Assembly: GCA_965198005.1 (NCBI GenBank)
Contig: CBDAOI010000003.1
Coordinates: forward strand, 768,479 to 832,478
Reading direction: 5' to 3'
Length of the DNA stretch: 64,000 nt
Origin: Spirochaetia bacterium
GTDB taxonomy: Bacteria; Spirochaetota; Spirochaetia; SZUA-6; Bin103
The translations under genes and the position numbers were made by a program. Below the pieces are notes generated by a model, which saw only the letters and a program-made list of their open reading frames with translations, was not told where the DNA came from and did not search any database. Position 1 is the stretch's first letter; the number at the start of each line of letters is the position of its first letter. Below are positions 3,197-40,789 of this stretch, in pieces.

Positions 3197-4099
3197 ATGA
3201 GCGACGCTGCAGGGATGCCATCGACAGAAATTGCGCCAAGGAGACGTTCCCGGCTGGCTGAATTCTTTATCAGGCTGGTCAAGGAGAAGCCACTGGGTGC
3301 TGCCAGCGGGATTATCATATTGATATGGATTCTGATCGCGATCTTTGCCGATGCTCTGACCCCTTATCCACCTTTTGAAATCCACCTGGCAGACCGGCTG
3401 CAGGGCTCATCCGCCCAGTATCTCCTGGGGACGGACCAGATAGGGCGAGACTTATTGAGCCGCCTGATCCTGGGGGGTCGTCTTTCCATACTGATCGGTC
3501 TGTCCATCACCGCTCTGAGTACTGTGATCAGTACCCTGATAGGCGGCACTTCCGGATTCCTTGGTGGTAAGTTTGACATTATAGTGCAGAGGGTTGTCGA
3601 TGCCTGGATAGTTTTCCCGGGACTGCTCCTGTTGCTAACCATAATGTCTATAGTGGGGCCGGGTATACCACAGATAATACTGGTCCTGGGGATATCAGGA
3701 GGTATTGGCGGCTCAAGAGTACTCAGAGGCACCGTTATCGGCATTAAAGAGAATGATTACTTTCTGGCGGCGCGGGCAATTGGGAGCCCCACCACCGCAA
3801 CACTGATGCGGCATGTCCTGCCCAATGTTATGCCTGTCGTCATCATCATATTCTCGATAACCGTAGGAGGCGTAATCCTGAGTATTGCTTCTCTGAGCTT
3901 CCTCGGATACGGTCTGCCCCCCACGAGTCCTGACTGGGGGTCTCTGCTCAGCCGGGAAGGACGTAAATACATGGAGCAGGCGCCATGGCTAGCTCTCTGG
4001 CCTGGTCTTTGCCTGACTATTACCGTTTACTGTCTAAACATGCTCGGCGACGCCCTCAGGGACCTCCTCGACCCCAGGCTCAGGGGCGGCGAGGGGTGA
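3197..4099 (+). CDS. DppC-type ABC transporter permease.
   Basis: It has a C-terminal-proximal transmembrane domain with the binding-protein-dependent signature (…GTDQIGRDLLSRLILGGRLSI…PNVMPVVIIIFSI…). Its start lies 10 nt after the stop of the upstream permease. It is collinear with 34194-35126 and 51579-52445. Confidence 0.85.
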   Translation: MSDAAGMPSTEIAPRRRSRLAEFFIRLVKEKPLGAASGIIILIWILIAIFADALTPYPPFEIHLADRLQGSSAQYLLGTDQIGRDLLSRLILGGRLSILIGLSITALSTVISTLIGGTSGFLGGKFDIIVQRVVDAWIVFPGLLLLLTIMSIVGPGIPQIILVLGISGGIGGSRVLRGTVIGIKENDYFLAARAIGSPTTATLMRHVLPNVMPVVIIIFSITVGGVILSIASLSFLGYGLPPTSPDWGSLLSREGRKYMEQAPWLALWPGLCLTITVYCLNMLGDALRDLLDPRLRGGEG

Positions 4100-7087: not shown

Positions 7088-7894
7088 ATGAAGATTCTGG
7101 TCACGAACGACGATGGTATTGATTCGCCAGGCATCCGGGCTCTCGCCGACGCGATGAGCCGGGTCGGGGAGGTGCTCATTGTTGCCCCGGACCAAGAGCA
7201 GAGTGGCATTGGCACCGCAGTATCCCTTCATAACGGCATTGCTGTTGCGGAACGAGACACTGCCATCGAAGGGGCGCGTGCCTATGCCGTCAGTGGCACA
7301 CCAAGTGATTGTGTGTTCCTGGGCTTAGGGCCATTGGCTGAAGGCAAGATTGACCTCGTCGTCTCCGGCATCAACACGGGTCCCAACCTCGGTAATGAAG
7401 TCCTGCAATCGGGTACCACCATGGCGACCCGGGTGGCTCATACCCGCAGTCCCAGGATCCCGTCAATTGCCGTCTCGCTGAGCCTATATGGGTCGCAAGA
7501 CCAGCGAGAGCCGCATTTTCCCCTTGCCGCCACGGTTTCCGAATTGTTGGCACGCAAAATAACGGAGGGCGAAATGCCGCCGGGCCTCACACTCAATGTG
7601 AACGTCCCCAGTGTCCCCCGCGGAGAAATCCGGGGTATTGCCGTCACAAGACCCTCGCCTGTTGGTTATTGGATGTGGAGAACGGAACAGGACGGCGATG
7701 GACTCTACTACAACAAGCTTTCCGCAATCGCAGCGGACCATCCCGACATCGAAGAGGGGACGGATGTCTGGGCTCTCAATCGGGGGCTCATATCCATCAC
7801 CCCGTTACGCCTCGAGGTCACCGACGATAAACTCATACCAGCGCTGAGTGAGCATACTCGTCGCTTAGAATCCGGTCTCAAGCAGATGATGTAA
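7088..7894 (+). CDS. surE: SurE 5'/3'-nucleotidase.
   Basis: MKILVTNDDGIDSPGIRALA… is a canonical SurE N-terminus. The ATG at 7088 lies 14 nt after the kinase stop, and an in-frame upstream ORF start at 7031 is unlikely. Confidence 0.85.
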   Translation: MKILVTNDDGIDSPGIRALADAMSRVGEVLIVAPDQEQSGIGTAVSLHNGIAVAERDTAIEGARAYAVSGTPSDCVFLGLGPLAEGKIDLVVSGINTGPNLGNEVLQSGTTMATRVAHTRSPRIPSIAVSLSLYGSQDQREPHFPLAATVSELLARKITEGEMPPGLTLNVNVPSVPRGEIRGIAVTRPSPVGYWMWRTEQDGDGLYYNKLSAIAADHPDIEEGTDVWALNRGLISITPLRLEVTDDKLIPALSEHTRRLESGLKQMM

Positions 7895-15881: not shown

Positions 15882-16200
15882 ATGAGCAAGCACATGATAA
15901 CCGTCGCGGTGACCGGCTCGGTGCCGACGCGCGACCAACATCCCGGCCTCCCCCACACCCCCGCGGAGATCGCCGACGCCACCTACGACTGCTACCGAGC
16001 AGGCGCCGCCATCGTCCATATCCATGTGCGCGATCCCGAGACCGGGGTCCCCACCTACCGCCTCAAGCTATTTCGCGAGTGCGTCGAGAGGATCCGCGAC
16101 AAGTGCGACATCCTCATCAACCTGACGACCAGCGGCAACAACATCCCCCGTAAGAACGTCATTGAGGAACGGCTGGTGTTGCGTTGCGCGCCCCGAGCCG
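15882..16200 (+). pseudogene. N-terminal ~105-aa fragment of a BKACE-family enzyme (3-keto-5-aminohexanoate cleavage enzyme, DUF849).
   Basis: MITVAVTGSVPTRDQHPGLPHTPAEIADATYDCYRAGAAIVHIHVRDPETG…ILINLTTSGNN matches the BKACE N-terminal TIM-barrel signature. Homology stops at ~16200 where the putative transposon end begins. Full-length enzymes are ~280-310 aa. Confidence 0.65.
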
Positions 16201-16204
16201 AGGT

Positions 16205-16331
16205 TAGTTGCATGATAGATGGCGCGGAGTGTGGGCGGTGGTCGTTCCGTTCCGAGTGCGTCCCTGGTGCGGAACAAGGGAACAGCGGAACAGTGGTCGG
16301 ATGAGAGCGAGCAGGCAGGCGACGGGCGGGG
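16205..16331. repeat. Putative transposon terminal region with reiterated GTTCCG/CGGAAC motifs.
   Basis: CGTTCCGTTCCGAGTGCGTCCCTGGTGCGGAACAAGGGAACAGCGGAACAG lies between the truncated BKACE gene and the AAA_25/tniB/tniA module. No matching opposite end was identified in the window. Confidence 0.35.
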
Positions 16332-17273
16332 TCAGGCCGGCAGGTGCCAGCCGGCGGGGCTGCGGACGGCGAGGCCGCGCTGTTCAAGGGTTTGGAGGGC
16401 GAGACCGAGACGGGCGTTGTTGACGCGCAAGCGTTGGCGGAGGGCGGTCCTGGAGAGCGGCTGGCCGGCGCTGCGGAGAGCGGCGCGCACCGCCTCGGCG
16501 AGCGGGGGCGGCGGGGCGGCAGCACTGTCGACGAGCAGGGAGAGGGGCTGGTCAGCGCCGCCTGAGAGGCGCAGCAGGAGGGGATCGGGAGCGGGAGCGG
16601 CGCGGTGCTCGACGGTGAGTTGGAGACGGTCGTCGGGGCGCCGCACCAGATAGCAGGCGGAGTCGGTCCAGGCGTGCAGGTCGGAGGAGCCGCGCAGAGA
16701 CTGGCCGAGATTGCGGCGCGAGCGCTTGGCCATGTGGTGGACGAGGACCAGAGCGAGTTGATAGCGGCGGTTGAGGGCGCGCAGAAAGCCGAGCAGAGAA
16801 GAGATGTCTGAGGCGCTGTTCTCGTCGAGACAATGAAGTCGGACCAGAGGGTCCAACAGCAGGAGTATGGGACGGATCTGAGCCACGGTCTGGTCGAGCG
16901 CGAGCTGGTCGCGCTCGGTATCGAGGCGCAGCCGGTCGGAGGTGACGACGTGCAGGTCGAGGCGGGTTAGGTCCAGGCCGCGGTGGCGGCACAAGTGGGC
17001 GACACGGTCGCGGACGCGGGGCAGAGCATCCTCGGCGAGATAGACCAGGGCGGGACCGGTGGCCTCGACCGGGAACCGCCCGAGGGCTGGGGTGCCGGAC
17101 GCGACCGAGACCGCGAGATCAAGTCCTAGCCAAGACTTACCAACTTTGGGCTGACCCCCGATTGCCCCCACGGCGGCGGCGGTCCAGAGGTCGTGCACCA
17201 ACCACTGGGGGGTGTCGGATTGGGGATCGATGGCATGGACGGGAACGGTGGGCAGCGGTTTGGTCATGGCCAC
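16332..17273 (-). CDS. AAA_25 / RepA-like RecA-fold ATPase associated with the tni module.
   Basis: …GAIGGQPKVGKSWLGLDLAVSVASGTP… is a Walker A loop in the AAA_25 context. Its start overlaps the tniB stop by 10 nt (17264-17273). Confidence 0.6.
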   Translation of the reverse strand: MAMTKPLPTVPVHAIDPQSDTPQWLVHDLWTAAAVGAIGGQPKVGKSWLGLDLAVSVASGTPALGRFPVEATGPALVYLAEDALPRVRDRVAHLCRHRGLDLTRLDLHVVTSDRLRLDTERDQLALDQTVAQIRPILLLLDPLVRLHCLDENSASDISSLLGFLRALNRRYQLALVLVHHMAKRSRRNLGQSLRGSSDLHAWTDSACYLVRRPDDRLQLTVEHRAAPAPDPLLLRLSGGADQPLSLLVDSAAAPPPPLAEAVRAALRSAGQPLSRTALRQRLRVNNARLGLALQTLEQRGLAVRSPAGWHLPA

Positions 17274-18067
17274 AGGTACCTGCGAGCGGCGATCACGTCA
17301 CCGGCACTGACGGTGGTGGCGGGGGTCTTGGCGGCGTGCTGCAGCGCCGCCAAGGCCAAGCGGTCGATGGCCCGCAGGTTGCCGTGGCTCATTTCGAAGA
17401 TGGTTTCCTGAGCGTCGCCGTCGAAGGGATTGGTGCGAGCGCCGGCGAGGGTGCAGCGATGTTCGACGTAGGCGCAGGTCTCATCCCGGGAGAGCAGACG
17501 CAGTTCGGCGTAATGCGCCAGACGGTGCGCGATGCCGGTTTGTTCGGGGCGTCGGAGGAGCAGTTTCAGGTGTGGCTGGCCGGCGAGCACGAGGGACACG
17601 ACGAGGCGACTGTCCATTTCGAAGTTCGTGAGGACCCTCAACATGGCCAACGCTTCGGGGCGCAGATCATGGGCCTCGTCGAACAGGATGACCGGGCGCA
17701 GACCGTCGCTGGCGGTGTGTTCGAAAGCCTCCTGCAGCTTGCGCACCAGAGCGGGATAAATGCCGGTGGGAGAGAGGCCGCAGGCGACGGCGATTTCCTT
17801 GCACAGGTCACGCTTGGAGAGGCCGGTCACCTTGACGTAATGGACCTGGAAGCGCGCCTCCGGCAGAGCGGCGAAGAGCATGCGCAAGGCGACGGTCTTA
17901 CCGGTGCCGGCGGGAGCGATGAGGGCGGCGCTCATGCGCTCCTGCACCGCCTCGGTGAGTGCGGTGGCGACCTGTGCTTGAGGTTCGAGAGGGAACCGCT
18001 CGCGCACGGTCAACTCGCGGGTAAAGGGGGTCTTGCGGAAGCCCAGTGGGCTGAGGTCATGGCTCAT
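17264..18067 (-). CDS. tniB: TniB-type transposition ATPase (AAA_22 / ExeA-like).
   Basis: Motifs: LIAPAGTGKTVAL (Walker A), ILFDEAHDL (Walker B), LVLAGQPHL. Its start overlaps the tniA stop by 4 nt (18064-18067). Confidence 0.75.
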   Translation of the reverse strand: MSHDLSPLGFRKTPFTRELTVRERFPLEPQAQVATALTEAVQERMSAALIAPAGTGKTVALRMLFAALPEARFQVHYVKVTGLSKRDLCKEIAVACGLSPTGIYPALVRKLQEAFEHTASDGLRPVILFDEAHDLRPEALAMLRVLTNFEMDSRLVVSLVLAGQPHLKLLLRRPEQTGIAHRLAHYAELRLLSRDETCAYVEHRCTLAGARTNPFDGDAQETIFEMSHGNLRAIDRLALAALQHAAKTPATTVSAGDVIAARRYLWP

Positions 18068-18735
18068 GGGTGCTGCTCCTGGTCGTGTTGGTCGTCCTGT
18101 GGATCGCTATAGCCGCCCTCGGGGTCGACCAGCGGGCGCAGGTCGTTGGCGTAGGCGATGCCGGCCGCAGTGGCAGGCAGTTCCTCGCCGTCCTCGTCGG
18201 CGGTCGGTTGCGGCGCGCGACCGGAGCCGCGCGGCGCGGTCGCGTTGGCGTGGGGGTCCACCTCAGCCAGCTCGATCATGCGCCCCTGGTGCTGAACCCA
18301 CAGCCGACCGTCGAGCACGTGGCGTGCCACCTCGACCCAACTGGCAGCGCTGCGGCGCGGCGCTTCCCACAACCGACCGTCGGCCTTGATGACGTGATCG
18401 TTGGAGACCTTGTGCATGGCGCGCACCACGAAGCGGCGGTACAGATCGGCGTCGTCTGTGGGGAAGCGTAGGGGACGCCCTTGCTCCCAGCGCTGACGCG
18501 GGGTGGTATCCTTGCCCAGAGTCTCGTGTGGGGTGTCGTTGTAGCGGTCGAGGAAGTGGCGCAGGCGGAGCGTGAGTGCCTCGCAAGCGGGGTCCACGTC
18601 GGCGGCGCCGTCGAGGGACCGCAGCACCTGATCGTACGCGGTGCGGTTGAAGCGCTCGATGGCGCCGTGGCCCTCGGGATACCTGGTGGCGCCGTGGATC
18701 AGCAAGGCGCCCAGTCCGCCCTGGATCACGCTCAA
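18064..18735 (-). pseudogene. tniA: C-terminal part of a Mu/TniA-type DDE transposase (tniA) separated from its N-terminal part by the RIT insertion.
   Basis: …HGAIERFNRTAYDQVLRSL… is the rve catalytic-core C-terminus. The upstream sequence (18766 onward) is a RIT inverted repeat, not tniA. Confidence 0.7.
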
Positions 18736-18891
18736 CGTGTCGAGGGAGATGAATCCCGGGCCTTTATCAAGGAAATGCCGAATTCGGCATTACCTTGATT
18801 ATCCCGAAAAAAATGAAATGCCGAAGTTTGTCGGTAACTTGTTTCCACACAAACAGATAGCGTTGCAAACTTCGGCATAACATTGGGGCTC

Positions 18892-19920
18892 TTAGAGGCC
18901 GCACAGCCGCCTCAGACTCTCCTCATCCTTCCAGGCGGGCGTTTCGTCCGCCAGCCCGGGATCTGCTCGCTCGATGGCTTTGCGCAGCATCTCGGTATCC
19001 GCGGAAGCATAGATCTCAGTGGTAGTCACGCTTGCATGTCCCAGGAATTCCGCAATATAAGGAAGCGGCATCCCGGACTGATAGAGATGCATCGCACGGC
19101 TATGTCGAAACAGATGAGGGTGCACTCTCGGCGGCACCTCAGCACATGTCGTGCGCGCACCTTCGCCGTAGTTCTTGACCAATACGCTGATCGCATCGGT
19201 GGATAGCATGTGCGGCCTACCCGCGTGCAGGGAATAGAACAGCGGCACTTCGTGACGGTCGGCGGGGCCAGCATGGAATTGCCGTAGATATTCCTTCAGA
19301 TGGGCAACGGTCTTGTCCATGAGAGGAACACTTCTGGTTTTGTTGCCTTTGCCGGTCACCAGTACGAATGGAGTTCTTGCCTCCAGATGGAAGTCGGTGA
19401 CGCGCAAGTCGACCAGCTCTTGAACCCTGGCTCCTGTGTCGTATAGCAGAATCATGATCATCCTGTTCCGTCTCCCCTTTACGGTTGTCTTATCAGGTTG
19501 AGCGAGCACCGTCCTCAGGGCCGTCTGCGACAGGTAACCGACCGGCGTCCGGGCCATCTTCAGTAATGGAATCTTTTTCACCTCCTGGAACACACTATAG
19601 AGGCTGACGTCTTCATCCGCACAGTATCTGAGGAATGCCTTGAGAGCGGATAGTCTGAGATTGCAGGTTGCGACTCCGCACGGCCTCTGGCGCAGCCACT
19701 GAATGTACTTGATCACCGAGTCTCGCGTGAAGTGATCCCATGATACATTCGCGAACTTGATCCGATGTTGTGCTTCGAGGAAGTCGCAGTACATGCCTAT
19801 CGATCGTCTGTAGGAGTCAACGGTGTGCGCACTGCAACAGCGTATTTTCGGCAGGTGCACCGTGAGGTACTCACGTACACACTTCCAGAATTGTTGTCCC
19901 GATGTGCTATCCCTGGTCAT
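18892..19920 (-). CDS. ritC: RIT tyrosine recombinase C (third gene of the trio).
   Basis: C-terminal catalytic motifs: …HPHLFRHSRAMHLYQSGMPLPYIAEFLGHASVTTTEIYA (R…HxxR…Y). The start is probably MTRDSTSGQQFWK, overlapping the ritB stop by ~14 nt. The longer ORF from 20076 is spurious. Confidence 0.75.
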   Translation of the reverse strand: MTRDSTSGQQFWKCVREYLTVHLPKIRCCSAHTVDSYRRSIGMYCDFLEAQHRIKFANVSWDHFTRDSVIKYIQWLRQRPCGVATCNLRLSALKAFLRYCADEDVSLYSVFQEVKKIPLLKMARTPVGYLSQTALRTVLAQPDKTTVKGRRNRMIMILLYDTGARVQELVDLRVTDFHLEARTPFVLVTGKGNKTRSVPLMDKTVAHLKEYLRQFHAGPADRHEVPLFYSLHAGRPHMLSTDAISVLVKNYGEGARTTCAEVPPRVHPHLFRHSRAMHLYQSGMPLPYIAEFLGHASVTTTEIYASADTEMLRKAIERADPGLADETPAWKDEESLRRLCGL

Positions 19921-20875
19921 GGTCCACCTCCGGAAGAATGGCCTCAGTGGCGCGCACCTTGGCCGCGAATGTAGCGAAGAACTCGGGAACCAGGTGAAGG
20001 TAGTAATCGGTACTTGCCAGGCTGGCGTGTCCCATGTACCTGCTGAGATAGGGGAGCATGGCGTTGACCTCAACACCGGTCGCGATCCACCGGTTCAGAT
20101 TGCTGAGCGCAAAGTGGTGCCTGAAGTCATACGCACGCGGTCGGTTGCCGCATCCCGCTCCCAGGCCCGCCGCCTTCCAGATGCGGTTGAATACTGCTGC
20201 TACGCTGCCGCCGCTGTAGCAATCCGATCTCGTTGTCGGGAAAAAGTAGATTCTCCCGGGATATATCACGGACACTCGTGCGGCATATCGACGGAGCAGA
20301 CCCAGAACGTCGGCCGGCACCGGAAGTCTGCGACTTCTGCAACCCTTCGAACGCATGATGTCGATGTGGCTGGCTTCCAGATCAACCTGCTCAACGCGCA
20401 GCGTTCTTGCCTCACCGGTCCTCAGACCACAGCAATACAGGAGGCGGAAGAATACCGGCAGGACCAGATGTCGCGCCTGCGCCGTCCCATGGGACTGGAG
20501 CTTGTCGCAGGCGCCGAAGAATGCCGTAATCTCCTGGTGAGTAAAGAAATGAGGCACGTACCTAGCGGCGGCACGGATGCCGGCTGAGGGAAGCACGAAG
20601 GCATCTGCAACGCCGATCGACTGCATATACTTGCCAAGTTCACGGATCGGCGATATCCGGATACGATGCCCTGCCAGATTTTCTCCGTCCTTGGCTTTCG
20701 CCCAACCGTGGACCAACTCTCTGCCGAGGGATTGGAATGCGGGATGCCGGGCTGCGTATCTGTCGAAATCATGGAGATAGAACTCAGCGCTCTCATAGGA
20801 GTAGCCAACGGCGCGCTTGGTCGCGACCAGTCCCGAGATAAAGGGTGCAAACAGGCTTGAGTATGCAGTATTCAT
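19907..20875 (-). CDS. ritB: RIT tyrosine recombinase B.
   Basis: …YDFRHHFALSNLNRWIATGVEVNAMLPYLSRYMGHASLASTDYYLH is a catalytic C-terminus. The likely start MNTAYSSLF gives an ATGA overlap with the ritA stop. Confidence 0.75.
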   Translation of the reverse strand: MNTAYSSLFAPFISGLVATKRAVGYSYESAEFYLHDFDRYAARHPAFQSLGRELVHGWAKAKDGENLAGHRIRISPIRELGKYMQSIGVADAFVLPSAGIRAAARYVPHFFTHQEITAFFGACDKLQSHGTAQARHLVLPVFFRLLYCCGLRTGEARTLRVEQVDLEASHIDIMRSKGCRSRRLPVPADVLGLLRRYAARVSVIYPGRIYFFPTTRSDCYSGGSVAAVFNRIWKAAGLGAGCGNRPRAYDFRHHFALSNLNRWIATGVEVNAMLPYLSRYMGHASLASTDYYLHLVPEFFATFAAKVRATEAILPEVDHDQG

Positions 20876-22107
20876 GACAGGCCTGCGCAGTTCACGGGAA
20901 TCTTGGCGAGGTCCAACGCACACTCCCTCATGCGCTGTTGGTCGGTCGCCAAGTAGACGTCGGTCGACTCTTTGTGGGCGTGTCCAAGCATGGTCGAAAT
21001 GGTAGTGACCGGGACCCCCTTGGAGAGCATCCTGGAGGCCGCAGAGTGACGCAGCACATGGAGCCCTTTGCGTTCGCTACCAACCCTTATCCCGGCTTGG
21101 AGGAAGGCTCGCCGAAGCACTGCATAACAGGCCGCATGGCCTGACAGAACGGTGAATGGGGCTAGACAACGAAGGAATACATATGAAGTAGCCGTTGTTG
21201 GACGCTCATTGAGCAGGTAAGCGGAGAGCGCATTGCCAACATCCGCGATCAGCGGGATCTTGAAGGCGATTCCGGTCTTTGACTGGGCGATTGTGATGGT
21301 GTCATTGATCCAGTCGATATCTGTGAGTTTGATCCTCAGGATGTCTACGGAACGCAATCCGGTTCGCAAGGCCAACAGGATGATGGCCTTATCCCGAAGC
21401 CGGAGTTGGCCGTTCTGCAGCACCTTTTCCAGTGCATCGTTTTCGTGGTCCAAAAGGATCGGTATGATTGGCCTGTTTCTGACACAGCGTGAAGGGACTG
21501 CCAATAGCAGCCGTTCTTCGGTTTCTGCGAATCTGAGAAACGAGCGGATGTTCGAGGCAACGGTACGAATACTGGTGGGCCGGTATGTGGCGAGCAGATG
21601 CTGGAAGAAAGCCGGTACCATAGCGGCGCTGGCGAGCGCCAGCGAAGTGCAGTCGTGGTCCTCCAGGAACAACAGGAATTGGCGGACTGCGCTGGCACAT
21701 GATTGTATCGTATTCGCGCTTTTGTTTGTGGCTGCAAGCTCGTCCATGAACCTCTCATGCAGGAGCAGCAATTCTCTCGACTTGGGCATCGGCTGGCAGT
21801 CGAATGTGTACGTGGTCCACCTGATTGCTCCGTTGGCGACGTATTCTTGCAGTATCAACGATGCTCGTCTGAGATGGTTTCGTCTGCCACGTCCGATTGC
21901 GCCCGCCTTGTGCTGTTCCTCTAGGTCATGCAGGAAACTTTGGATCAGACTGTCGCAGAAACGTTCGACGTTGCGCGCGGCTGCGTACTGCTTGAGCCGC
22001 CTATATGTTTGTCGATAGTGGTTGATCGTTATCGGGTCAAGGCCGAACTTTCCGATCTCCTGAAGAACGCTCTCGACAAGATCGTCCAACAATAGGTTGT
22101 CGTGCAT
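20872..22107 (-). CDS. ritA: RIT tyrosine recombinase A (largest, 411 aa).
   Basis: …LHVLRHSAASRMLSKGVPVTTISTMLGHAHKESTDVYLA is a catalytic C-terminus. It is first in the trio and lies directly inside IR-R. Confidence 0.75.
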   Translation of the reverse strand: MHDNLLLDDLVESVLQEIGKFGLDPITINHYRQTYRRLKQYAAARNVERFCDSLIQSFLHDLEEQHKAGAIGRGRRNHLRRASLILQEYVANGAIRWTTYTFDCQPMPKSRELLLLHERFMDELAATNKSANTIQSCASAVRQFLLFLEDHDCTSLALASAAMVPAFFQHLLATYRPTSIRTVASNIRSFLRFAETEERLLLAVPSRCVRNRPIIPILLDHENDALEKVLQNGQLRLRDKAIILLALRTGLRSVDILRIKLTDIDWINDTITIAQSKTGIAFKIPLIADVGNALSAYLLNERPTTATSYVFLRCLAPFTVLSGHAACYAVLRRAFLQAGIRVGSERKGLHVLRHSAASRMLSKGVPVTTISTMLGHAHKESTDVYLATDQQRMRECALDLAKIPVNCAGLS

Positions 22108-22183
22108 TGTGCACCTCCCTGATGATGTCCAGATGGATGTCTGGCGCTCTCATCATAGAAGGGGCCTTGCCCATCGGCCAATA

Positions 22184-22960
22184 TTATGCCGAAGTTTGCA
22201 ACGCTATCTGTTTGTGTGGAAACAAGTTACCATCAAACTTCGGCATTTCATTTTTTTCGGGATAATCAAGGAAGAACAAATCAGCCAAGCCGTGCCGTAT
22301 GACCAGCGCCCAGAGAGCGCGCAGGAACAGCTCGCTGGACTCCGCGGTGCCCACCAGCACTCCCAGGCCGTAGCGCGTGGCATCGTCAATCAGGAACAAG
22401 GCGACCCGGCGCAGACGTGCGGCGCCGGCGCGGAAATGCTTGCCGTCAGCGAGCACGCACTGCATGCGCTGCGCATAGCGCCAGCGCCGCATGTCCCCCT
22501 CACGCTTGTGCGGTCGTTGGCGCGTCGGCAGCCCCATCCGCCGGCAGGCGCGCCACACGGTGGTGCGATCGATCTTGGCGTCGACCGGGATGATGCCGAG
22601 CTCCCGCGCGCGGCGCACCAGTTCCGGCACCGAGGCGCGCGCATCACGCTGCTTCTCGGTGCGCAGAAAGGTGACCAGTTTGGGACTCAGCGCCAGTGAG
22701 GTCGCGATGCGGGTGCGGCTCTGCGGCGTCAGGGCAGCGAGGCTGCCGGCGGCCCAGGCAGCGCGCCAGCGTTGCAAGCTGCGTACGCTGACCCGCACCG
22801 GGCGCCCGTCCAGGTCCACGCGGTCGGTGCCGGCAACGCGGCGTACGGCGGCGCCTGCGGGCCAGCCGCGCACCACCAGGGCCTCGACCTCGGCGACCAC
22901 CAGGTAGCGCTGCAGCGCGGTGGTCGAGACCGGTAGCGGGGGACGATCTGAATCATTCAT
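22184..22960 (-). pseudogene. tniA: N-terminal part (HTH plus start of the DDE core) of the tniA transposase interrupted by the RIT element.
   Basis: …RVALFLIDDATRYGLGVLVGT… is the first catalytic-D region. The frame then reads into RIT IR-R (…DYPEKNEMPKF…). The start ATG overlaps the stop of orf312 (ATGA at 22957-22960). Confidence 0.7.
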
Positions 22961-23895
22961 GAGCGTACCGTAGCGCCTCCGGGGGCGCCTCGATCAAGCA
23001 ATTTCGTAGTGGGTGGAGCGCGCTCCCGAGGGCTCCCGGCACCCCCCTGTTCCCGCGCTGCGGAAGCCTCGGTCGGGGCCACGATCCAGCTCTTGCCGGC
23101 CTGCTCCCAGCGCGCCACCAGCCGCGGGCGCGGCGGCCCCCACAGGTCGCTCACCGCCCCGGCCGCCGCCATGCGGTCCCCCAGCGTGGCGGCGGCCGTG
23201 ATCGCCCGCAGCACGGCCACGATCGCTGCGCCGCGGCTCTGCCAACTGCGCCCCCAGCGCGCGGCGCCGTCCCGCACGGTCATGGTCGCTACGCCCAACC
23301 GCGTCGCGATCCGTTCGCGGGCGCCCTCGTCCAACCCCGGACTCACCCCGGTCAGGCGTCCGGCCACCTCCAGGCGGCGTCCTTGGGTGCGCCGCCGGCG
23401 CCGCTCCGGAGAGCGGTGCCACCAGTGCACCTCGGCTGGCCAGTGCTCCCCCCGCGCCGCATCCTGCGCCGCCGCAAACAGCGTCGCCTGCCACTGCGGT
23501 CGTCTGCCGGCTGCGTCCAACAGCAGGTCCCCACTTGCGCTACAGGGTGTCGCCGCAACGCGGCCATACGGGTAGTGTCCGGGCGGATACAGGGTGTAGC
23601 GCCGGCCTCCATGGACCCGGCACCCCACCACCGCTACCGCGTGGCAGGGCCCGCTCTTGCGCTTTCGGTAATGATCGACGAAGATGGCACACGTCTGCTC
23701 CCCTGTGGCGTAGACGCACCGCGACGGCAGCACGGCGCGCAAGGTCCCGTCCTGATCCGCTTGGTAGTTCGTCGTCGCCAACGGGAGCGCGTGTGCCTCG
23801 GTTGCACCCTCGGACACTCGCTGCCTCTCGTGAGCCTTGGCGGGCGGTTGTCTCCCGCCCGCCAAGGCCGCCTGAAAAAGTGAAGCCCGCAGCAT
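22957..23895 (-). CDS. Hypothetical 312-aa protein translationally coupled upstream of tniA.
   Basis: Its stop overlaps the tniA start (ATGA). It is Arg/Ala-rich with a Cys/His-containing segment, QTCAIFVDHYRKRKSGPCHAVAVVGCRVHGGRRY. No recognisable domain was found. It could in part be a GC-rich artefact. Confidence 0.4.
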   Translation of the reverse strand: MLRASLFQAALAGGRQPPAKAHERQRVSEGATEAHALPLATTNYQADQDGTLRAVLPSRCVYATGEQTCAIFVDHYRKRKSGPCHAVAVVGCRVHGGRRYTLYPPGHYPYGRVAATPCSASGDLLLDAAGRRPQWQATLFAAAQDAARGEHWPAEVHWWHRSPERRRRRTQGRRLEVAGRLTGVSPGLDEGARERIATRLGVATMTVRDGAARWGRSWQSRGAAIVAVLRAITAAATLGDRMAAAGAVSDLWGPPRPRLVARWEQAGKSWIVAPTEASAAREQGGAGSPRERAPPTTKLLDRGAPGGATVRS

Positions 23896-23995
23896 TCACC
23901 TGCTGCGGGCTCCTCACTTTATACCCCTATCGCTTCTCCGCCTACGCCATCATCACCGCAACCGGTACCCCCTCACCGCGCCCTTGGGCGCGCAA

Positions 23996-25684
23996 CGAAG
24001 AACTCAGGCACGTGCGTACGTCATATACCGGGACCTGGGAGGTCTTCGGGTCGTCCCGGCGAGTCGTCGCCGGGACCGCGGAGGGAAGGCGTGAGGCTGG
24101 ACCAAAGATGAACGACCCGAAGGAGTCGGACATGGGCATAGTAGCGGCGAAGCCGGCGAACAAGGGAGCGCAAGCGACTGCGGAGACGGTGGAGCGAAGG
24201 CCCATGACCAACGGGAATTCGCAAGGTCAAAGCACGGGCCGGACGCAGAGTCGGGCAACCGTGACACAGGCGGCCGAGCGGATACGGCAATTCGTAAAGA
24301 GAGAACCGCAGGAGAAACTCACTGCGCTGCTGCACCACGTGACGCCGGAAGCGCTGCGGGTGGCCTATTACGCGCTGAAGCGTGAAGCGGCCCCGGGGGT
24401 GGACGGGATGACGTGGCGGGAGTACGAGACGGGGTTGGAAGTGCGTTTGCACGACCTGCACCGGCGAGTACACACAGGAGCGTACCGAGCGACCCCGGTA
24501 CGGCGGGTCAACATCGACAAGCCGGACGGAGGCACACGACCGCTGGGGGTGGCCGCGCTGGAGGACAAGATCGTCCAGAAGGCCGTGGTGGATGTGATCC
24601 TGACACCGATCTATGAGGAGGAATTTCTCGGGATCAGCTATGGGTTTCGACCGGGGCGAGGGGCACACGATGCGTTGGACGCACTGGCCTACGCCATCGA
24701 ACGGCGCGAAGTGAACTGGATATTGGACGCGGACATTCGCGCCTACTTCGACACGATCTCGCGGGACTGGTTGATCAGATTCCTGGAGCATCGGATTGGA
24801 GATCGGCGGGTGCTGCGGCTGATAAAGAAGTGGCTGCGCGCTGGGGTACTGGAAGAAGGCCGACAGATCGACGCGGGGCGGGGTACAGCGCAAGGGTCGG
24901 TGATTTCACCGATGCTCGCGAATATATACTTGCACTACGTGTTGGACCTGTGGGTCACCAAGAAGTGGCGGCCGCAGGAGGCGCGCGGAGACATGATCAT
25001 AGTGCGCTACGCAGATGACTATGTCGCCGGGTTCGAGCATCGTGACGATGCGGAACGCTTCCTGCGGGAACTGAAGGAGCGATTCAGAGGCTTCGAGCTG
25101 GAACTGAACGCCGACAAGACCCGACTCCTCGAGTTTGGACGGTATGCCGAAAGGAACCGCCGAGCACGTGGGGAAGGGCGACCGGAGACGTTCGACTTTC
25201 TGGGTTTCACGCATTATTGCAGGAAGGACAGGAAAGGACGCTTCGGGCTGGGGCGGAAGCCAATTCGGAAGCGGATGAATCGTACGCTGAAGAGGATCAA
25301 GATCGAACTCCGCAGACGCATGCATGATGACGTGATGGAAACCGGGCGCTGGCTGGGACGGGTACTGCGCGGATGGCTCAACTACTACGCGGTATGCGCG
25401 GATGGCTCAACTACTACGCGGTACCCACCAGCTACCGCTACCTGCACCGATTCGTGTGGCGTCTGCGAGGAATCTGGGTAAAGATTCTACGCCGGAGGTC
25501 CCAGAAGGACCGATTCTCCTGGGCTTGGATGCTGGCGATCAGCATCGAGCTGTGGCCCCAACCCCGAATCGTACACCCATGGCCGGACCGGCGATTTGCC
25601 GTCAACCACCGAAGGTAGGAGCCGGATGGTTTAACGACCACGTCCGGATCTGTGCGGGGGGCGCCGGGTAACCGGCGTTCCTAC
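23996..25684 (+). mobile_element. Group II intron copy 1: a 5'-truncated fragment comprising the domain IV ORF plus domains V and VI.
   Basis: It is co-linear, apart from the 31-bp insertion below, with 45568-47226 of copy 2. It lacks the ~250 nt that precede that point in copy 2. A domain-V-like hairpin GAGCCGGATGGTTTAACGACCACGTCCGGATC lies at 25623-25655. Confidence 0.7.
24204..25620 (+). pseudogene. Group II intron reverse transcriptase/maturase (IEP) disrupted by a 31-bp tandem duplication.
   Basis: RT motifs include …PGVDGMTWREYE… and YADDYV, with a maturase X domain. The direct duplication GCGGATGGCTCAACTACTACGCGGTA at 25367-25428 shifts the frame within …RGWLNYYAV…. Confidence 0.75.
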
Positions 25685-30215: not shown

Positions 30216-30788
30216 TAGTCGCCCAGCCAACCGCGCGACAGCCGTTCGCTCGGCGCCGGTGCTGAGCGCGGCACCATCGATCGGTGTGGCGCACAGCCGC
30301 CACGCGTCCGCGCGTCTAGCGGCCGACCGGGTCGGCCGCAGCCTCCACCAGTCCACTGAGCGAGCGTTGCCGGCAACCCAGCTTCGAGTATCCAGCTCAC
30401 CTCCCAGCTCCATTCATCATCGGCGAGCGTGCTTTGGCTTGCCGACGACACGGCCTGCAGCGCCATCCGCACGCACCCCGGTCAACGCTTCACCCTCGCT
30501 CTTGCGAGCGGCAGCGCATGACTCGGCGCCGCCGCCGTGGGCCGCCAGCCCTTCGACGTATGACTCTTCCATTCACCACACCCTGCCGGTTTTTGCCGGT
30601 GCACAGGAGGCCCGAATGATACTCAAAGAGCCGTAGGCGCGCGCGGCGTGAGCCGGGGCGAACCCGGGTGAGTCACACGCCGCGCGCTTTTGGTGAACTT
30701 GACTCAGACTGGCCGCCTGCGTTGCGCGTGGCCAGGGAGCGGCAAGTCGCTCCGAAATACTCTCGAGACAACATTCAAGGAGACAAGG

Positions 30789-38532: not shown

Positions 38533-38764
38533 GAACCGAACAGGACGGCGATGGTCTTTACCACAACAAGCTCTCCGCAATCGCAGCGGACCATCCCGAC
38601 ATCGTAGAGGGGACCGATGTCTGGGCTCTGAATAGGGGGCTCATCTGTTTCCAGCCAGTCGCTGTTTCCAAACCGTGCCAAGCAGGATTGCCAGCGCGTG
38701 CCAGCGTGTGATGCTGGTGTCCGCCAGCGGCGAACGCCAGCGGTGCCGGCTGTCGCGGTTTAGT

Positions 38765-39561
38765 TTAGTCGTGGAGTTCATCGGTAACGATGTTGGTGGA
38801 GTCGATGATGCTGATGTCGTTGACGACGGCGTGGAGGATGGAACGATAGCAGACGGCGTTGACCAAGCGCGGCACGCCGCCGGCGTGGCGGTGAATGTCA
38901 GCTTTGGCATCATCGGCGAAGATCGAGGCAGGGCGGCCACAGCGGACGGTGTGGTGGTCGATGTAGCGACAGGTCTCCTCCAGAGCCATGGCCGGCATGT
39001 GATAGGAGATACGGATGCGCTGGCGCAAGGAAGCGAAGGAAACATATCTGAGCAACTCGCGCAGCTCGGGTTGGCCGGCGAGGACGAAGGTGATGGAGTT
39101 TTTGGTGTCGAAGGCAAAGTTGACCATGTTCTTGATGGCCGCCAGGGCGGTGGGGGCGAGGTCCTGGGCATCGTCGAGGATAATCAGTGGTTTCTTGGTC
39201 TGCTCGGGGATGGTCTTGAAGAACAGCTGCCTGGCCTGGCCGGCGAAGAAGGGCGGGTCGATCTTCATCTCATTGAGGATTGCCTTGTAGAGCTGGGCTT
39301 CCGAGAGGCCGGCGCCGCGGACATAGAGGGGGCGGTAGCGGTTGCCGTCGAGTTCGCTAACGAAAGCGGCGAGGGCGACCGACTTGCCGGAGCCGATGGG
39401 GCCGGTGAGGAGCAGGAGATCCTCGTCAGCAACCCCGAAGGAAAGGCGGGAGAGCGCCTCCTGATGGGCGGCGGAGGGGAAGGTATCGGCAGGGCCGAGG
39501 TGTTTGCCGAACGGCAGCCGAGAAAAGCCGAAGAAGGCGAGGACTTGATCATGCATCTGCA
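38765..39561 (-). CDS. Second, divergent TniB/ExeA-like AAA_22 ATPase.
   Basis: Motifs: LLLLTGPIGSGKSVAL (Walker A), LIILDDAQDL (Walker B), VLAGQPEL. The likely start is MQMHDQVLAFFG. The long N-terminal extension of the ORF track is GC-rich run-on. Confidence 0.65.
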
Positions 39562-40310
39562 TCGTGGTGCTCCTGGTCGTTGGTACGGAACTGAGCGAAC
39601 GAAGTCTGGTTGCGGTCGCGGAGCTGGGCGTGGTGCTGCTCGCGCAGGCGGGTGAAGTAGTCACGCGCGGCGGCCGACACCTCAGGCGGCTTGGCGGGGG
39701 ACTCCTCGGGGACCGCCGGCACTTGTGTGGAGACCTGTTTGGAAGCGCTGGTGGTCTCCAGCCGGCCGCCGCCGGGGACGTAGATGGCCAGCTGGGCGAG
39801 GTCGTAGGGGTCGAAGCGGACCTCGACGACGCTGCCATGAGGAACGGCGGTGACAGGGTATTGGTTGCCGTGCAGCTTGATCCTGCCGTACTTGCTGACG
39901 GTGCGCCGTTCGCGCCACAGGAACAGGGCGTTGAAGGTCTCCAGATCGGTGATGCGGCGGTGGTCGGCGGGCAGCCCGTCGCGGAAACGTGCATCGGGAC
40001 TCTGGCCGGTGGCTGAGTGGACGCGGACGTTGTATTCGAGATCCATCCAGGCCCAGAAGGCGGAGTTCAGTTCATCGAGAGTACGCATCCCGGCGACTTG
40101 AGCCTCGCGTTGGAACTGGTTCTTGATGATCTTGTTGGCGGCCTCGACCTTGCCCTTGCAATAACTTTGATAGGGCGGGTGGCGCACTCGTTTGACCTGT
40201 AACTCGACCAGGATGGCGAGCATGTGGCGTGAGATGTAAACTTTTCCGTTGTCGACATAGCACCGAGCCGGCACGCCGTAGCGCAGAACGCAATAGCGGA
40301 AGCTGTCCAT
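39549..40310 (-). pseudogene. C-terminal fragment of a second Mu/TniA-like DDE transposase. The N-terminus is absent.
   Basis: …YVDNGKVYISRHM…HPPYQSYCKGKVEAANK is the rve-core C-terminus. There is no upstream coding continuation beyond 40310. Confidence 0.6.
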
Positions 40311-40789
40311 CAGGGCGGGCAGCTTCTCGTCGAAATAGTACTTGCCGAACAGGATTTTGCGGGAGAAGTCGTTGTCAGCGCCCGCGCTCTGGTAGTGGAA
40401 ACTGGATAGAATTCTCGCTTTGCTGTAGGTGAGACTGAGCAGAGAGAAGAAGGGAGACCGGGAATCAGTGGTTGGACCCCACCCGGTCTCCCCTCAACCA
40501 GTACGATACTCATACTTGATATAGCCCAGGAAAGCTACCACTTCGCTGAGCTCCGAGATAGCTGGCAGCGCGTACTCCAGGGGCTGGGGTGTCCGGCGTG
40601 CGGCAGCACCCGATTGGGGCATCACAGCAGCTACGAGAAGTACCTGTACGAGCAGCCGCTAGCGATTCTGCGGCTGCGCTGCTGGGGGTGTGGGCGCACC
40701 CATGCCGTGATCCCCTCCTGGTCGCTGCCGGACACCTCGGTGGGTACCGCAGAGGTAGAGCGCTACCTGATAGATCGCGAGCGCGGCGC

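Follow-up and report, generated by a model that had tools for sequence, protein, structure and literature searches.

A RIT element within a catalytic-aspartate codon of a DDE transposase gene: its ends, the target sequence shared by its relatives and a proposed mode of integration

RIT elements, known from the work of Van Houdt (2009 and 2012) and Ricker (2013), are typified by those of Cupriavidus metallidurans CH34 and of C. necator pHG1. They are widespread in bacteria, and the element described here shares with the classic ones three adjacent tyrosine recombinase genes, the order RitA-RitB-RitC, short gene overlaps, flanking inverted repeats (IRs) and the presence of multiple copies. Published overlaps are 4-8 bp (PMC3414803) and take the form ATGA (PMC2864759); RitA contains two sequential core-binding domains, and RitC an extra conserved C-terminal helix (PMC8138268). 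In 2012, Acidithiobacillus ferrooxidans was reported to carry a RIT within a transposase gene belonging to a Tn6049-related transposon, and this was taken as support for RIT mobility; because those copies are nearly identical and occupy one genomic location, no target rule can be derived from them (PMC3414803). No laboratory experiment has reproduced RIT transposition, and target specificity is listed as not tested; Tn554, SE elements, GInts and Tn916/CTnDOT carry a few flank-derived bases from their previous site (PMC10214605).

We analysed a 64,000-nt stretch of DNA (the window) in which a 3,499-bp RIT element interrupts a DDE transposase gene (Table 1). Gene-by-gene matches to the pHG1 trio, together with gene order, overlaps and long IRs, identify the locus as a RIT and support its description as a complete element that splits one transposase gene cleanly, with both junctions readable. 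An initial sequence-only reading had proposed such an element with three tandem tyrosine recombinases, and the Phage_integrase matches in all three proteins bear this out. The genes are adjacent, collinear and all on the minus strand (18892-22107). The ritA and ritB genes overlap by 4 nt, the ritB ATG lying within the ritA stop (ATGA), and ritB and ritC overlap by 14 nt, slightly above the published values; both overlaps had been read correctly, as had the lengths of 411 and 322 aa, but ritC encodes 342 rather than ~343 aa.

In BLASTP comparisons with the pHG1 trio, RitA best matched gene 1 (29% identity over the full length, E 1e-36), RitB gene 2 (34%, E 1e-53) and RitC gene 3 (38%, E 2e-64). 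Cross-matches between non-corresponding positions were far weaker, and the order RitA-RitB-RitC is kept, with each protein in its own subfamily. Alignment to the pHG1 proteins places all catalytic R...K...HxxR...H/W...Y positions in RitA and RitC. RitB reads YDFRH where pHG1 RitB reads HDLRH, a tyrosine replacing the first histidine of HxxR, but the R, the H next to it and the GH...Y motif are kept. The SAM-like N-terminal domains that had been expected were matched by Pfam in RitA and RitC. The ~110-aa N-terminal extension of RitA aligns with that of pHG1 RitA, and an AF2 model of moderate confidence (mean pLDDT 73, pTM 0.46) predicts four-helix bundles at residues 7-92 and 111-194, N-terminal of the catalytic domain. 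A C-terminal extension of RitC (...ETPAWKDEESLRRLCGL) aligns with the extension of pHG1 RitC.

We found that removing the RIT yields a single 465-aa ORF, reading ...HGLADLFFLDKGPGFISLD..., which aligns without gaps over the junction to 14 intact homologues (457-473 aa, 66-90% identity). These results show that deletion of the RIT restores the host gene exactly, and confirm that the two halves belong to one transposase gene; the limits first given for them, 22184-22960 and 18064-18735, are those of mechanical ORFs, and the true halves are listed in Table 1. Residues D172, D232 and E269 are catalytic and invariant in the transposase family alignment. As first read, the HTH region and the first catalytic aspartate are in the N-terminal half. 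E269 is in the C-terminal half; the RIT junction falls within the codon of the second aspartate, D232 (L-D-K-G, GATAAAGG; CTT GAT AAA GGC). Cutting at 18775-22273 is an equal alternative, since the same 9 bp, ATCAAGGAA on the plus strand, occur at both junctions; on the minus strand this flanking direct repeat reads TTCCTTGAT.

The RIT also differs from its surroundings in composition, with a GC content of 0.554 versus 0.695 for the host transposon (14 points apart), and window GC drops from ~0.70 to ~0.55 on entering it. It is 95.6% identical in nucleotide sequence, over 3.5 kb, to the RITs of loci L001 and L002, which occupy a transposase unrelated to the one interrupted here. Copies with 91-96% nucleotide identity in different genes and contigs suggest that the element is mobile as a unit. 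Together, these data show that the RIT is foreign to its host transposon.

The host transposon contains orfX, the DDE transposase gene, an AAA_22 gene and an AAA_25 gene, and its limits are set where similarity to L139, L140 and L141 stops; these three loci are uninterrupted copies, without the trio, in three different contexts. The downstream part of the operon is intact, as had been proposed: the AAA_22 and AAA_25 genes match 267- and 311-aa genes of uninterrupted copies, the latter in L140 and L141. The AAA_22 protein also matches TIGR03015 (ExeA/GspA-type ATPase) with E 1e-28, under the family cut-off.

The interrupted gene had been labelled tniA and Tn5053-like, which holds only loosely. 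It does show the traits of the Mu/TnsB/TniA superfamily (an rve-fold DDE domain, N-terminal HTH domains and a separate AAA+ ATPase), and its sole solved-structure relative is TnsB, matched by the family profile over the catalytic core (E 2.4e-4). Pfam matched rve and rve_3 in the window transposase below threshold only and detected no Mu-transpos_C domain, and the best NCBIfam match, IS481, was under its cut-off; across the family, HTH_32/HTH_28 matched 13-15 of 15 members and rve_3 matched 12/15. A tblastn search of 72,556 plasmids (E 1e-5) returned eight matches, all distant, and none to a Tn402/Tn5053 transposase. At the same threshold, neither target transposase matched a Tn6049 or Cupriavidus plasmid in this collection, which may lack pMOL28 and pMOL30. 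A domain search of the host transposon genes found neither TniQ nor a resolvase. The Tn5053-Tn402 family was rejected for want of a recognisable TniA sequence, a tniQ and a resolvase. From these comparisons, the enzyme is an rve-type DDE transposase that is Mu/TnsB-like at the superfamily level only, and not TniA proper.

Table 1. Coordinates of the RIT element, its parts and the host transposon in the window.
Feature	Position	Strand	Remarks
Host transposon	16177..23997	-	4.3 kb without the RIT; ends GTTGCGCGCCC... and ...GGGCGCGCAACGCAACA
AAA_25 gene	16332..17273	-	Intact, last host transposon gene; 313 aa; E 1e-32
AAA_22 ATPase gene	17264..18067	-	Intact; TniB/MuB/ExeA-like; 267 aa; E 5e-21
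Transposase gene, 3' part	18064..18766	-	Downstream of D232 codon; contains E269
RIT element, whole	18767..22265	-	Deletion recovers 465-aa ORF; GC contrast; copy in unrelated transposase
Outer 7-nt arm (X_right)	18767..18773		TCAAGGA on plus strand; adjoins target TAAAGG (minus strand)
Perfect palindrome	18774..18791		AATGCCGAATTCGGCATT, 18 nt; two inverted IR-motif copies
Inner 7-nt arm (rcX)	18792..18798		ACCTTGA on plus strand; 6/7 versus outer-arm complement
IR-C (ritC end)	18799..18886		Plus-strand terminus TTATCCCG...
ritC	18892..19920	-	342 aa; Phage_integrase E 3e-29
ritB	19907..20875	-	322 aa; Phage_integrase E 2e-19
ritA	20872..22107	-	411 aa; Phage_integrase E 6e-28; SAM-like domain, residues 118-197
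IR-A (ritA end)	22178..22265		Plus-strand terminus ...CGGGATAA; three copies of WWATSCCGAA(G)
Target's own 7 nt (X_left)	22266..22272		Other junction; TCCTTGA on minus strand
Transposase gene, 5' part	22266..22960	-	HTH region and first catalytic D172
orfX	22957..23895	-	First host transposon gene; no family match; 271-285-aa genes at same place in L140/L141

The locus had been put forward as a clean natural case in which target choice and IR architecture could be studied, and the target rule and the anatomy of the ends that it and its relatives yielded bear this out. The imperfect IRs, first read as ~100 bp, are 94 nt with 97% complementarity (18793-18886 and 22178-22271); the inner limits then given were too far in, by 4 nt at 18890 and by 13 nt at 22165. 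In this lineage the IR terminus reads TTATSCCGAA. The repeat at the ritC end is detected from 18793 because the neighbouring 6 nt also pair with the flank of the other end. An 18-nt sub-repeat of the IR occurs four times in the window (0.03 expected). The element does not end simply in two IRs, as had been supposed: the ends are asymmetric, and the ritC end alone has a 32-nt extension in which the palindrome lies between two 7-nt arms. The palindrome is kept beside one end in every relative examined. The arm sequences vary between RIT copies, and the inner-arm sequence found here recurs in locus L118; nonetheless, among 16 tabulated loci the two arms are complementary at 7/7 positions in seven and at 6/7 in four more. 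In loci L003, L011 and L146 the outer arm does not match the 7 nt of the target itself, so the arm travels with the element and is not a target duplication. The last 4-5 nt of the outer arm are usually identical to the target, as if homology were favoured in the overlap region.

Comparison of relatives revealed a common target. In all 14 tabulated junctions of this RIT lineage, drawn from loci of which many belong to ENA metagenome assemblies related to one another, and many others owe their retrieval to the palindrome itself, GAYAAMGG stands at a constant distance after the palindrome; positions 6-13 past the palindrome read G-A-Y-A-A-(C in 12/14)-G-G. The loci retrieved through RitA and not through the palindrome (L001-L004, L006, L009-L013 and L146) all fit as well. 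These data show that, in this lineage, the palindrome-bearing end always lies 7 nt upstream of GAYAAMGG. They also show that the rit genes can take either orientation relative to the target: L001 and L002 are opposite in rit orientation, with the palindrome on the AACGG side in both. The targets comprise at least eight divergent DDE transposases (24-61% identical to one another, or with no detectable identity) and non-transposase genes; the ORFs flanking the junctions start with xDNG, and their domains are rve_3 or Mu-transpos_C. The rule is also obeyed in an Eco57I-like gene (L146), in an ORF without transposase similarity (L011) and, out of frame, in an oxidoreductase gene (L003), which argues that DNA is recognised rather than a protein family; DDE transposase genes are targeted because GAY AAC GG is a common spelling of their D-N-G codons. 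The target in the window, GATAAAGG, departs from the consensus AAC. Thirteen further GAYAAMGG sites in the window are all empty, including a canonical TATGTCGACAACGG at 40246-40253 in a remnant of the other target transposase, so either the 8-mer by itself does not suffice or insertions seldom occur.

These observations lead us to propose, with a probability of roughly 0.78, that the RIT integrated at the D232 codon of a DDE transposase gene and thereby disabled the 4.3-kb transposon to which this gene belongs. RitA, RitB and RitC would bind the WWATSCCGAA repeats, three in each IR and two in the palindrome. The element would excise as a circle whose joint consists of IR-C, a 7-nt arm, the palindrome, a 7-nt arm and IR-A; in this joint two core sites would lie back to back, each comprising one IR terminus, a ~7-nt spacer and one half of the palindrome. 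A conservative tyrosine-recombinase exchange, with a GTCGACAACGG site as the preferred target, would then join target ...NNNGA to the IR terminus TTATCCCG, and the element's outer arm to YAAMGG. Either core could be used, which would account for both gene orientations. Counting against this reading are the absence of a circular joint from ~140 loci, laboratory transposition never having been reproduced, the window target's departure from AAC, the empty GAYAAMGG sites and the retrieval of many loci from related assemblies or through the palindrome.

The same element and target could instead have been brought together through folded single-stranded or hairpin DNA rather than a double-stranded circle, as for integron attC sites, CTX phage and IS608. 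The 94-nt IRs and the arm-palindrome-arm segment would form one long stem that presents the core site, and a single strand exchange would be resolved by replication. Consistent with this route, arm-palindrome-arm makes a perfect or near-perfect hairpin in most copies even though the arm sequences vary, Rit proteins are simple Xer/IntI-like recombinases (PMC8138268), and a mobilome study that recovered exonuclease-protected RIT DNA without a circular junction proposed hairpin intermediates (PMC5737581); a circular joint, in which the palindrome would have an IR to either side, was likewise not seen in the ~140 loci here. Perfect arms could also arise, however, by alternate use of two cores within one target family or by ordinary quasi-palindrome correction during replication. 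In addition, both rit orientations occur, whereas strand-specific mechanisms usually leave one orientation relative to replication. We regard the hairpin route as rather unlikely.

Far less probable is essentially random insertion, with the target rule a survival effect of harmless hits in selfish genes and the 9-bp TTCCTTGAT an ordinary target-site duplication. RITs do often lie in islands rich in mobile elements (PMC3414803), and identical 9 bp flank the element in the window, but selection could not set 14 independent insertions on one 8-mer at one offset, in targets with as little as 0-30% protein identity and at an out-of-frame site in an oxidoreductase gene. Moreover, the flanking 7-mers differ in L003, L011 and L146, so there is no regular duplication, and the element has no DDE enzyme for staggered cuts. 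We can give hardly any credence to the trio being an integral accessory module of the host transposon, such as a resolution system, or an assembly chimera. Composite Tn::RIT structures do recur at different genomic places (L009, L010); however, the empty sites in L139-L141 show the same transposon without the trio, and the trio breaks the catalytic core, differs by 14 points in GC and has its 95.6%-identical counterpart in an unrelated gene. A chimera is at odds with the recurrence of both junctions in independent contigs.

Integration by tyrosine recombination at the D232 codon, the reading we prefer, can be compared with the described systems. The arrangement resembles that in A. ferrooxidans, where a RIT also lies in the DDE transposase of a small transposase-plus-ATPase transposon, although the host transposon here has orfX and AAA_25 in addition. 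The arrangement is therefore not new in kind, whereas the GAYAAMGG rule and the att-site anatomy appear undescribed in the literature covered, Ricker 2013 lying outside it. Like Tn554, SE elements and GInts, the RIT has more than one tyrosine recombinase and inserts site-specifically with no regular target duplication, and its outer arm parallels the 6 bp that Tn554 and SE elements carry over and the Tn916/CTnDOT coupling sequences. Unlike them, it has no TnpC, Srap or Tfp counterpart, and its lineage has long IRs, both orientations and, as proposed, a palindromic two-core joint. For experiments, this locus together with its relatives offers exact element limits, a candidate attachment joint, natural empty sites and a testable 8-bp target that includes 5 nt of homology.

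Group II introns, inteins, Tn7 at glmS and the Tn5053-family 'res hunters' use a short sequence that selection keeps from changing because it encodes an essential or catalytic motif, which makes the target available in many hosts at low host cost. RITs would differ in their chemistry, tyrosine recombination, and in their victims, the enzymes of other mobile elements. We lean slightly towards the view that the RIT class consists of sequence-specific 'homing' transposons, with each lineage reading a DNA word of ~8-12 bp for a conserved, often catalytic, mobile-element enzyme motif, with a two-core palindromic joint whose arms record the previous site. RITs would then be parasites dedicated to other mobile elements, and perhaps off-switches for them that can be reversed. 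If this wider pattern holds, RITs would knock out transposases, recombinases and partition ATPases at their catalytic cores in a conflict among mobile elements, and annotators could follow a simple rule: a RIT may lie concealed in a transposase or integrase 'pseudogene' that is split. Six lineages were sampled, sharing the central palindrome AATSCCGAATTCGGSATT. Besides D-N-G of DDE transposases in the window lineage, the target motifs were R-H in tyrosine recombinases; ...ILVRHG, directly before the usual GKG motif, also in tyrosine recombinases; AEYER in serine recombinases; V-D-x-D-P in ParA ATPases; and D-E-T-G-x-x-K-K-G in an unassigned gene. The pHG1 RIT differs from the window element in its protein identity of just 29-38%, in its 35-nt (versus 94-nt) IRs and in its palindrome centre, CTGCAG versus GAATTC. 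It resembles the window element in its one-sided palindrome and its location inside an integrase gene, which it splits at ...STTERY, a motif normally ending in the catalytic tyrosine.

Removal of 3,499 bp (18775-22273, equivalent to 18767-22265) joins the two gene segments flanking the RIT into a single 465-aa ORF (...HGLADLFFLDKGPGFISLD...), and ATCAAGGAA is present at both junctions (18766-18774 and 22265-22273). We found more than 1,000 homologues of the host transposase, the best intact ones being 465-473 aa long with 85-90% identity, and an alignment of 15 sequences is gap-free across the RIT junction. Three residues, D172, D232 and E269, are invariant in this alignment, with spacings of 60 and 37 residues; they are the D-D-E triad of the rve type, and the RIT is inserted exactly at the D232 codon. 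The host transposon occurs uninterrupted in three contexts (loci L139, L140 and L141), with the empty sites TTCTTCCTGGACAAGGGG or TTCTTCCTCGACAAGGGC; by similarity to these copies, it extends over about 16177-23997 of the window and measures 4.3 kb without the RIT. The junction codons differ synonymously (CTT GAT AAA in the window vs CTS GAC AAG in intact copies); these bases might derive from the RIT, an origin indistinguishable from ordinary divergence. Together, these results bear out the sequence-only reading that the two segments are halves of one ORF and that the operon downstream, with its AAA_22 and AAA_25 genes, is whole, and the uninterrupted copies it proposed to look for define the empty site. 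The observation as a whole is confirmed. Its interpretation is supported as well, once the host gene's family name and the architecture of the RIT ends are corrected. The host transposon gene orfX keeps its position in L140 and L141 (271-285 aa) and gave no Pfam or NCBIfam family match.

Features of the RIT, its host transposon and other elements in the window
Feature	Position	Strand	Description
AAA_25 protein gene	16332-17273		host transposon gene, intact
AAA_22 ATPase gene	17264-18067		host transposon gene, intact
Inverted repeat	18793-18886		94 nt
ritC	18892-19920	-	342 aa; ATG at 19920, 14 nt before ritB stop
ritB	19907-20875	-	322 aa; ATG at 20875, ATGA overlap with ritA stop
ritA	20872-22107	-	411 aa
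Inverted repeat	22178-22271		94 nt
orfX	22957-23895	-	first host transposon gene
Group II intron reverse transcriptase ORF	23535-25481	+	RVT_1 (E 3e-34), GIIM
Group II intron D1-D4 RNA (Rfam)	30451-30567	-	
Transposon remnant	38645-40372		5'-truncated, L002-type
Canonical target TATGTCGACAACGG	40246-40253	-	unoccupied
Group II intron D1-D4 RNA (Rfam)	45351-45575	+	

In Pfam searches, RitA, RitB and RitC all matched Phage_integrase, and RitA and RitC also matched SAM-like core-binding domains; the trio is, as had been read, a tandem of tyrosine-recombinase genes with overlaps of 4-14 nt. Each protein resembles its counterpart in the trio of plasmid pHG1 of Cupriavidus necator H16: RitA corresponds to gene 1 over its full length (29% identity, E 1e-36), RitB to gene 2 (34%, E 1e-53) and RitC to gene 3 (38%, E 2e-64), and matches to the non-corresponding genes are much weaker. 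An AlphaFold model of RitA, of moderate confidence, places two consecutive four-helix bundles ahead of the catalytic domain, an arrangement described as specific to RitA (PMC8138268). RitC ends in an extension that aligns with the C-terminal extension of pHG1 RitC, and the catalytic residues are present in all three proteins with a single exception in RitB (YDFRH vs HDLRH in pHG1 RitB). Because the matches agree gene by gene and are joined by the RitA bundles and the catalytic residues, membership of the trio in the RIT class is well supported. At the RitB exception, the first His of the HxxR box is replaced by Tyr (AYDFRHHFA vs VHDLRHAYA in pHG1 RitB).

The host gene had been called tniA and its product a Mu/Tn5053-like transposase. 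In Pfam, the host transposase gave HTH matches and only sub-threshold matches to rve and rve_3, and its best NCBIfam match, IS481, fell under the cut-off of that family. A profile of its own family matched TnsB structures over the catalytic core (E 2.4e-4). Searching 72,556 plasmids by tblastn returned only eight distant DDE genes, with no Tn402/Tn5053 or Tn6049 transposase among the matches. These comparisons argue that the host transposase works like the Mu/TnsB/TniA type, with an AAA+ partner, and that it lies outside the TniA family. The earlier name holds only loosely, at superfamily level. A relationship of the host transposon to Tn6049 or Tn5053 was also sought by tblastn against plasmids, which gave no link.

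The two inverted repeats (IRs) that bracket the rit genes are 97% complementary. A motif of about 11 nt, WWATSCCGAA(G), is present three times in each of them; in an 18-nt form, it was counted four times in the window, where chance would give 0.03. The GC content of the RIT, 0.55, compares with 0.70 for the host transposon and 0.625 for the whole window. The RIT ends are asymmetric. With the sequence oriented as the rit genes run, the ritA end consists of a bare IR terminus (...TTCTTCCTTGA / TTATCCCG....), whereas the ritC end reads ...CGGGATAA / TCAAGGT - AATGCCGAATTCGGCATT - TCCTTGA / TAAAGGCCC.... and so has a 32-nt extension, in which an 18-nt perfect palindrome stands between an inner and an outer arm of 7 nt each. 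In the palindrome, AATGCCGAATTCGGCATT, the IR motif is present twice, one copy inverted relative to the other. Thus, the flanking IRs described from the sequence are present, and a description of the ends as two IRs alone has to be amended by this extension.

Close homologues of RitA number in the hundreds in metagenomes; a search for the exact RitA sequence gave no match. Two of the relatives are named, and both are 'Spirochaetia' MAGs. Loci were collected via RitA (L001-L013, L145 and L146) and via the palindrome (L018-L137). A scan of genome contigs with peptide patterns that were too narrow gave seven loci, and a palindrome scan of viral contigs gave three matches, all unrelated. The window RIT and the RITs of L001 and L002 share 95.6% identity over 3.5 kb. 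Those two also lie inside a DDE transposase (VDNGKVY..., Mu-transpos_C), and in its C-terminal half no similarity to that of the window's transposase was detectable. We found that all copies of this RIT lineage share the end structure described above and that the palindrome is one-sided in each, at the ritC end in the window, L002, L003, L006, L009, L010 and L012, and at the ritA end in L001, L004, L011, L013 and L146. Whichever way the rit genes point, it always stands on the side where the target continues AACGG; L001 and L002, with opposite RIT orientations in one gene family, both keep this rule. Two loci, L005 and L109, were left out because the RIT is flanked on either side by one and the same half of its target gene, in inverted orientation; they are likely to be assembly fold-backs across the IRs or IR-mediated inversions. 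Palindromes occur at both ends in L088, and on both sides of a 524-bp, MITE-like derivative in L073 that consists of IRs only.

We aligned 14 junctions on the palindrome, representing 13 distinct target contexts (L001 and L009 lie in 96%-identical transposase copies). Positions 6-13 after the palindrome read G, A, Y, A, A, C (12/14), G, G. In 12 of the 14, the flanking ORF opens with xDNG or xDKG, followed by sequence that resembles an rve core (DNGGEF, DNGSPF, DNGSAFVS...GRGKIERF, DNGKVY), and Pfam found rve_3 or Mu-transpos_C in these fragments; pairwise, the target proteins are 24-61% identical or have no detectable similarity. Three further targets are, on present evidence, not transposases. 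That of L146 is an Eco57I-like gene (...LYSDNGTG). That of L011 is an ORF (...FYIDNG) without similarity to the transposase targets, at a guess from its sequence an AAA_14/DUF4143-type ATPase. In L003, the target is a Gfo/Idh/MocA oxidoreductase gene that reads the 8-mer in another frame (A TGA CAA CGG, giving MTTELVGTKG). These non-transposase and out-of-frame targets argue that this RIT lineage recognises DNA; GAY AAC GG is a very common spelling at the second catalytic aspartate of DDE transposases, which is why these are hit. The 13 other copies of the 8-mer GAYAAMGG in the window are all empty; the 8-mer alone is therefore insufficient, or insertions happen rarely. The possibility that the target mimics the IR terminus or a palindrome arm was rejected, since the likeness comes down to GA plus a chance TTCGG in one family.

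Counting all copies, GAYAAMGG occurs 14 times in the window vs 5.8 expected, and none of 100 shuffles reached 14. Similar contexts at 3003/33991, 3732/34729 and also 7042/37908 suggest large duplicated segments. The transposon remnant (...RCYVDNGKVYISRHM...) belongs to the other transposon family that this RIT lineage hits; it is 93.5% identical to the L002 transposon, and its TATGTCGACAACGG is one of the 13 empty copies.

The same central palindrome stands beside complete RitA-B-C trios with other IR sequences in five other lineages (among L018-L137, e.g. L020, L087, L094, L097, L060, L093, L125 and L109), and each IR type has its own target motif. Two of these motifs lie in tyrosine recombinases: R-H-x-F (13 tabulated junctions) and ...(I/V)L(V/I)R(H/R)G (4 junctions), the latter right before the usual GKG position. 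Serine recombinases are hit at ...A-E-Y-E-R, inside the Resolvase N-terminal domain (4 junctions), and ParA-type ATPases at ...V/I-D-x-D-P (6 readable junctions); in one locus, the motif reads V-D-E-T-G-x-x-K-K-G. The pHG1 RIT (L138; NC_005241.1, locus 3800-3860 and 7329-7363) has 35-nt IRs and, at its ritA end, a perfect 32-nt palindrome, TAGCGCAAATGTGCTG/CAGCACATTTGCGCTA. The gene it interrupts is annotated as an integrase and is broken at ...WHVQPSTTERY / LGY...; the STTERY-type motif of tyrosine recombinases normally ends in the catalytic tyrosine.

The outer arm is the exact complement of the inner arm in 7 of 16 tabulated loci and matches at six of seven positions in four more, the window included. 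With the 7 nt that the target itself contributes at the opposite junction, it usually agrees in the last 5 nt only (e.g. GTCGA, GTGGA, CTTGA), and in all 7 nt in the window. The two flanking 7-mers are unlike in L011 (ATATCGA vs TTGTCGA), L146 (ACTCCGA vs ATGTCGA) and L003 (CCCGAGA vs TCAATGA), which argues that the outer arm is brought in by the RIT and that there is no regular target duplication. The frequent 4-5-nt identity between the flanking 7-mers resembles the preference of tyrosine recombinases for homology in the overlap region. Arms are unlike between copies in one same target (L009 vs L010), consistent with arms being a record of earlier insertion sites; they are similar in this to the coupling sequences of Tn916 and to the 6 bp taken along by Tn554 and SE elements when they move to a new site (PMC10214605). 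L009 and L010, from one sample, hold the same transposon::RIT composite in two genomic places, with inner arms TCGATGGA vs TCGACAA; this implies separate entry of the RIT into each transposon copy or movement of the disabled composite in trans.

We propose that the RIT would excise as a circle whose joint comprises the IR terminus of the ritC end, the inner arm, the palindrome, the outer arm and the IR terminus of the ritA end (predicted: ...CGGGATAA-TCAAGGT-AATGCCGAATTCGGCATT-TCCTTGA-TTATCCCG...). Excision would leave the restored target site TTCTTCCTTGATAAAGGC, and GTCGACAACGG is the candidate target sequence of integration. The predicted joint is a near-perfect palindrome and would hold two back-to-back core sites, in each of which a spacer of about 7 nt separates an IR-terminal motif from a palindrome half. 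Recombination of one spacer with a target NNNGA/YAAMGG would give the observed product; use of the other core would give the opposite rit orientation, with the palindrome still beside AAMGG. As a variant, the reaction may possibly proceed via folded single-stranded DNA, to which the hairpin-like 7-nt arms, the Xer/IntI-like Rit enzymes, and mobilome data together with a published hairpin proposal (PMC5737581) point. As for the double-stranded circle proposed here, no joint with an IR on both sides of the palindrome was found in any of the fetched loci, including an element-sized contig (L145, 3,456 nt), which ends within the IRs as expected of a multi-copy repeat.

RITs have been reported in the transposase gene of a Tn6049-related transposon of A. 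ferrooxidans and in radC of an ICE (PMC3414803), and an IS66 tnpA was inactivated by a RIT in a study that also noted ATGA overlaps between rit genes (PMC2864759); the insertion in the window therefore adds one more case to a kind already on record. That RIT ends carry palindromic repeats has also been described (PMC5737581). RIT target specificity is listed as not tested, and RIT transposition as not reproduced (PMC10214605). The few papers on RITs consulted (Ricker et al. 2013 not among them) describe neither a fixed target word nor an element-borne arm, a two-core joint or lineage-specific motifs. This locus and its relatives make RIT target choice and att-site structure directly testable.

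In L140 (2879-4016), an intact copy of the host transposon directly abuts a truncated RIT (IR and the first 1.1 kb of ritA). The ritA end of this RIT is itself situated in an ISAzo13-type transposase, at ...VGNFKN/, an arrangement suggestive of mutual damage by the two kinds of element. In the window, a group II intron ORF adjoins the left end of the host transposon and two more group II intron RNAs (D1-D4) lie elsewhere, marking the region as dense in mobile elements.
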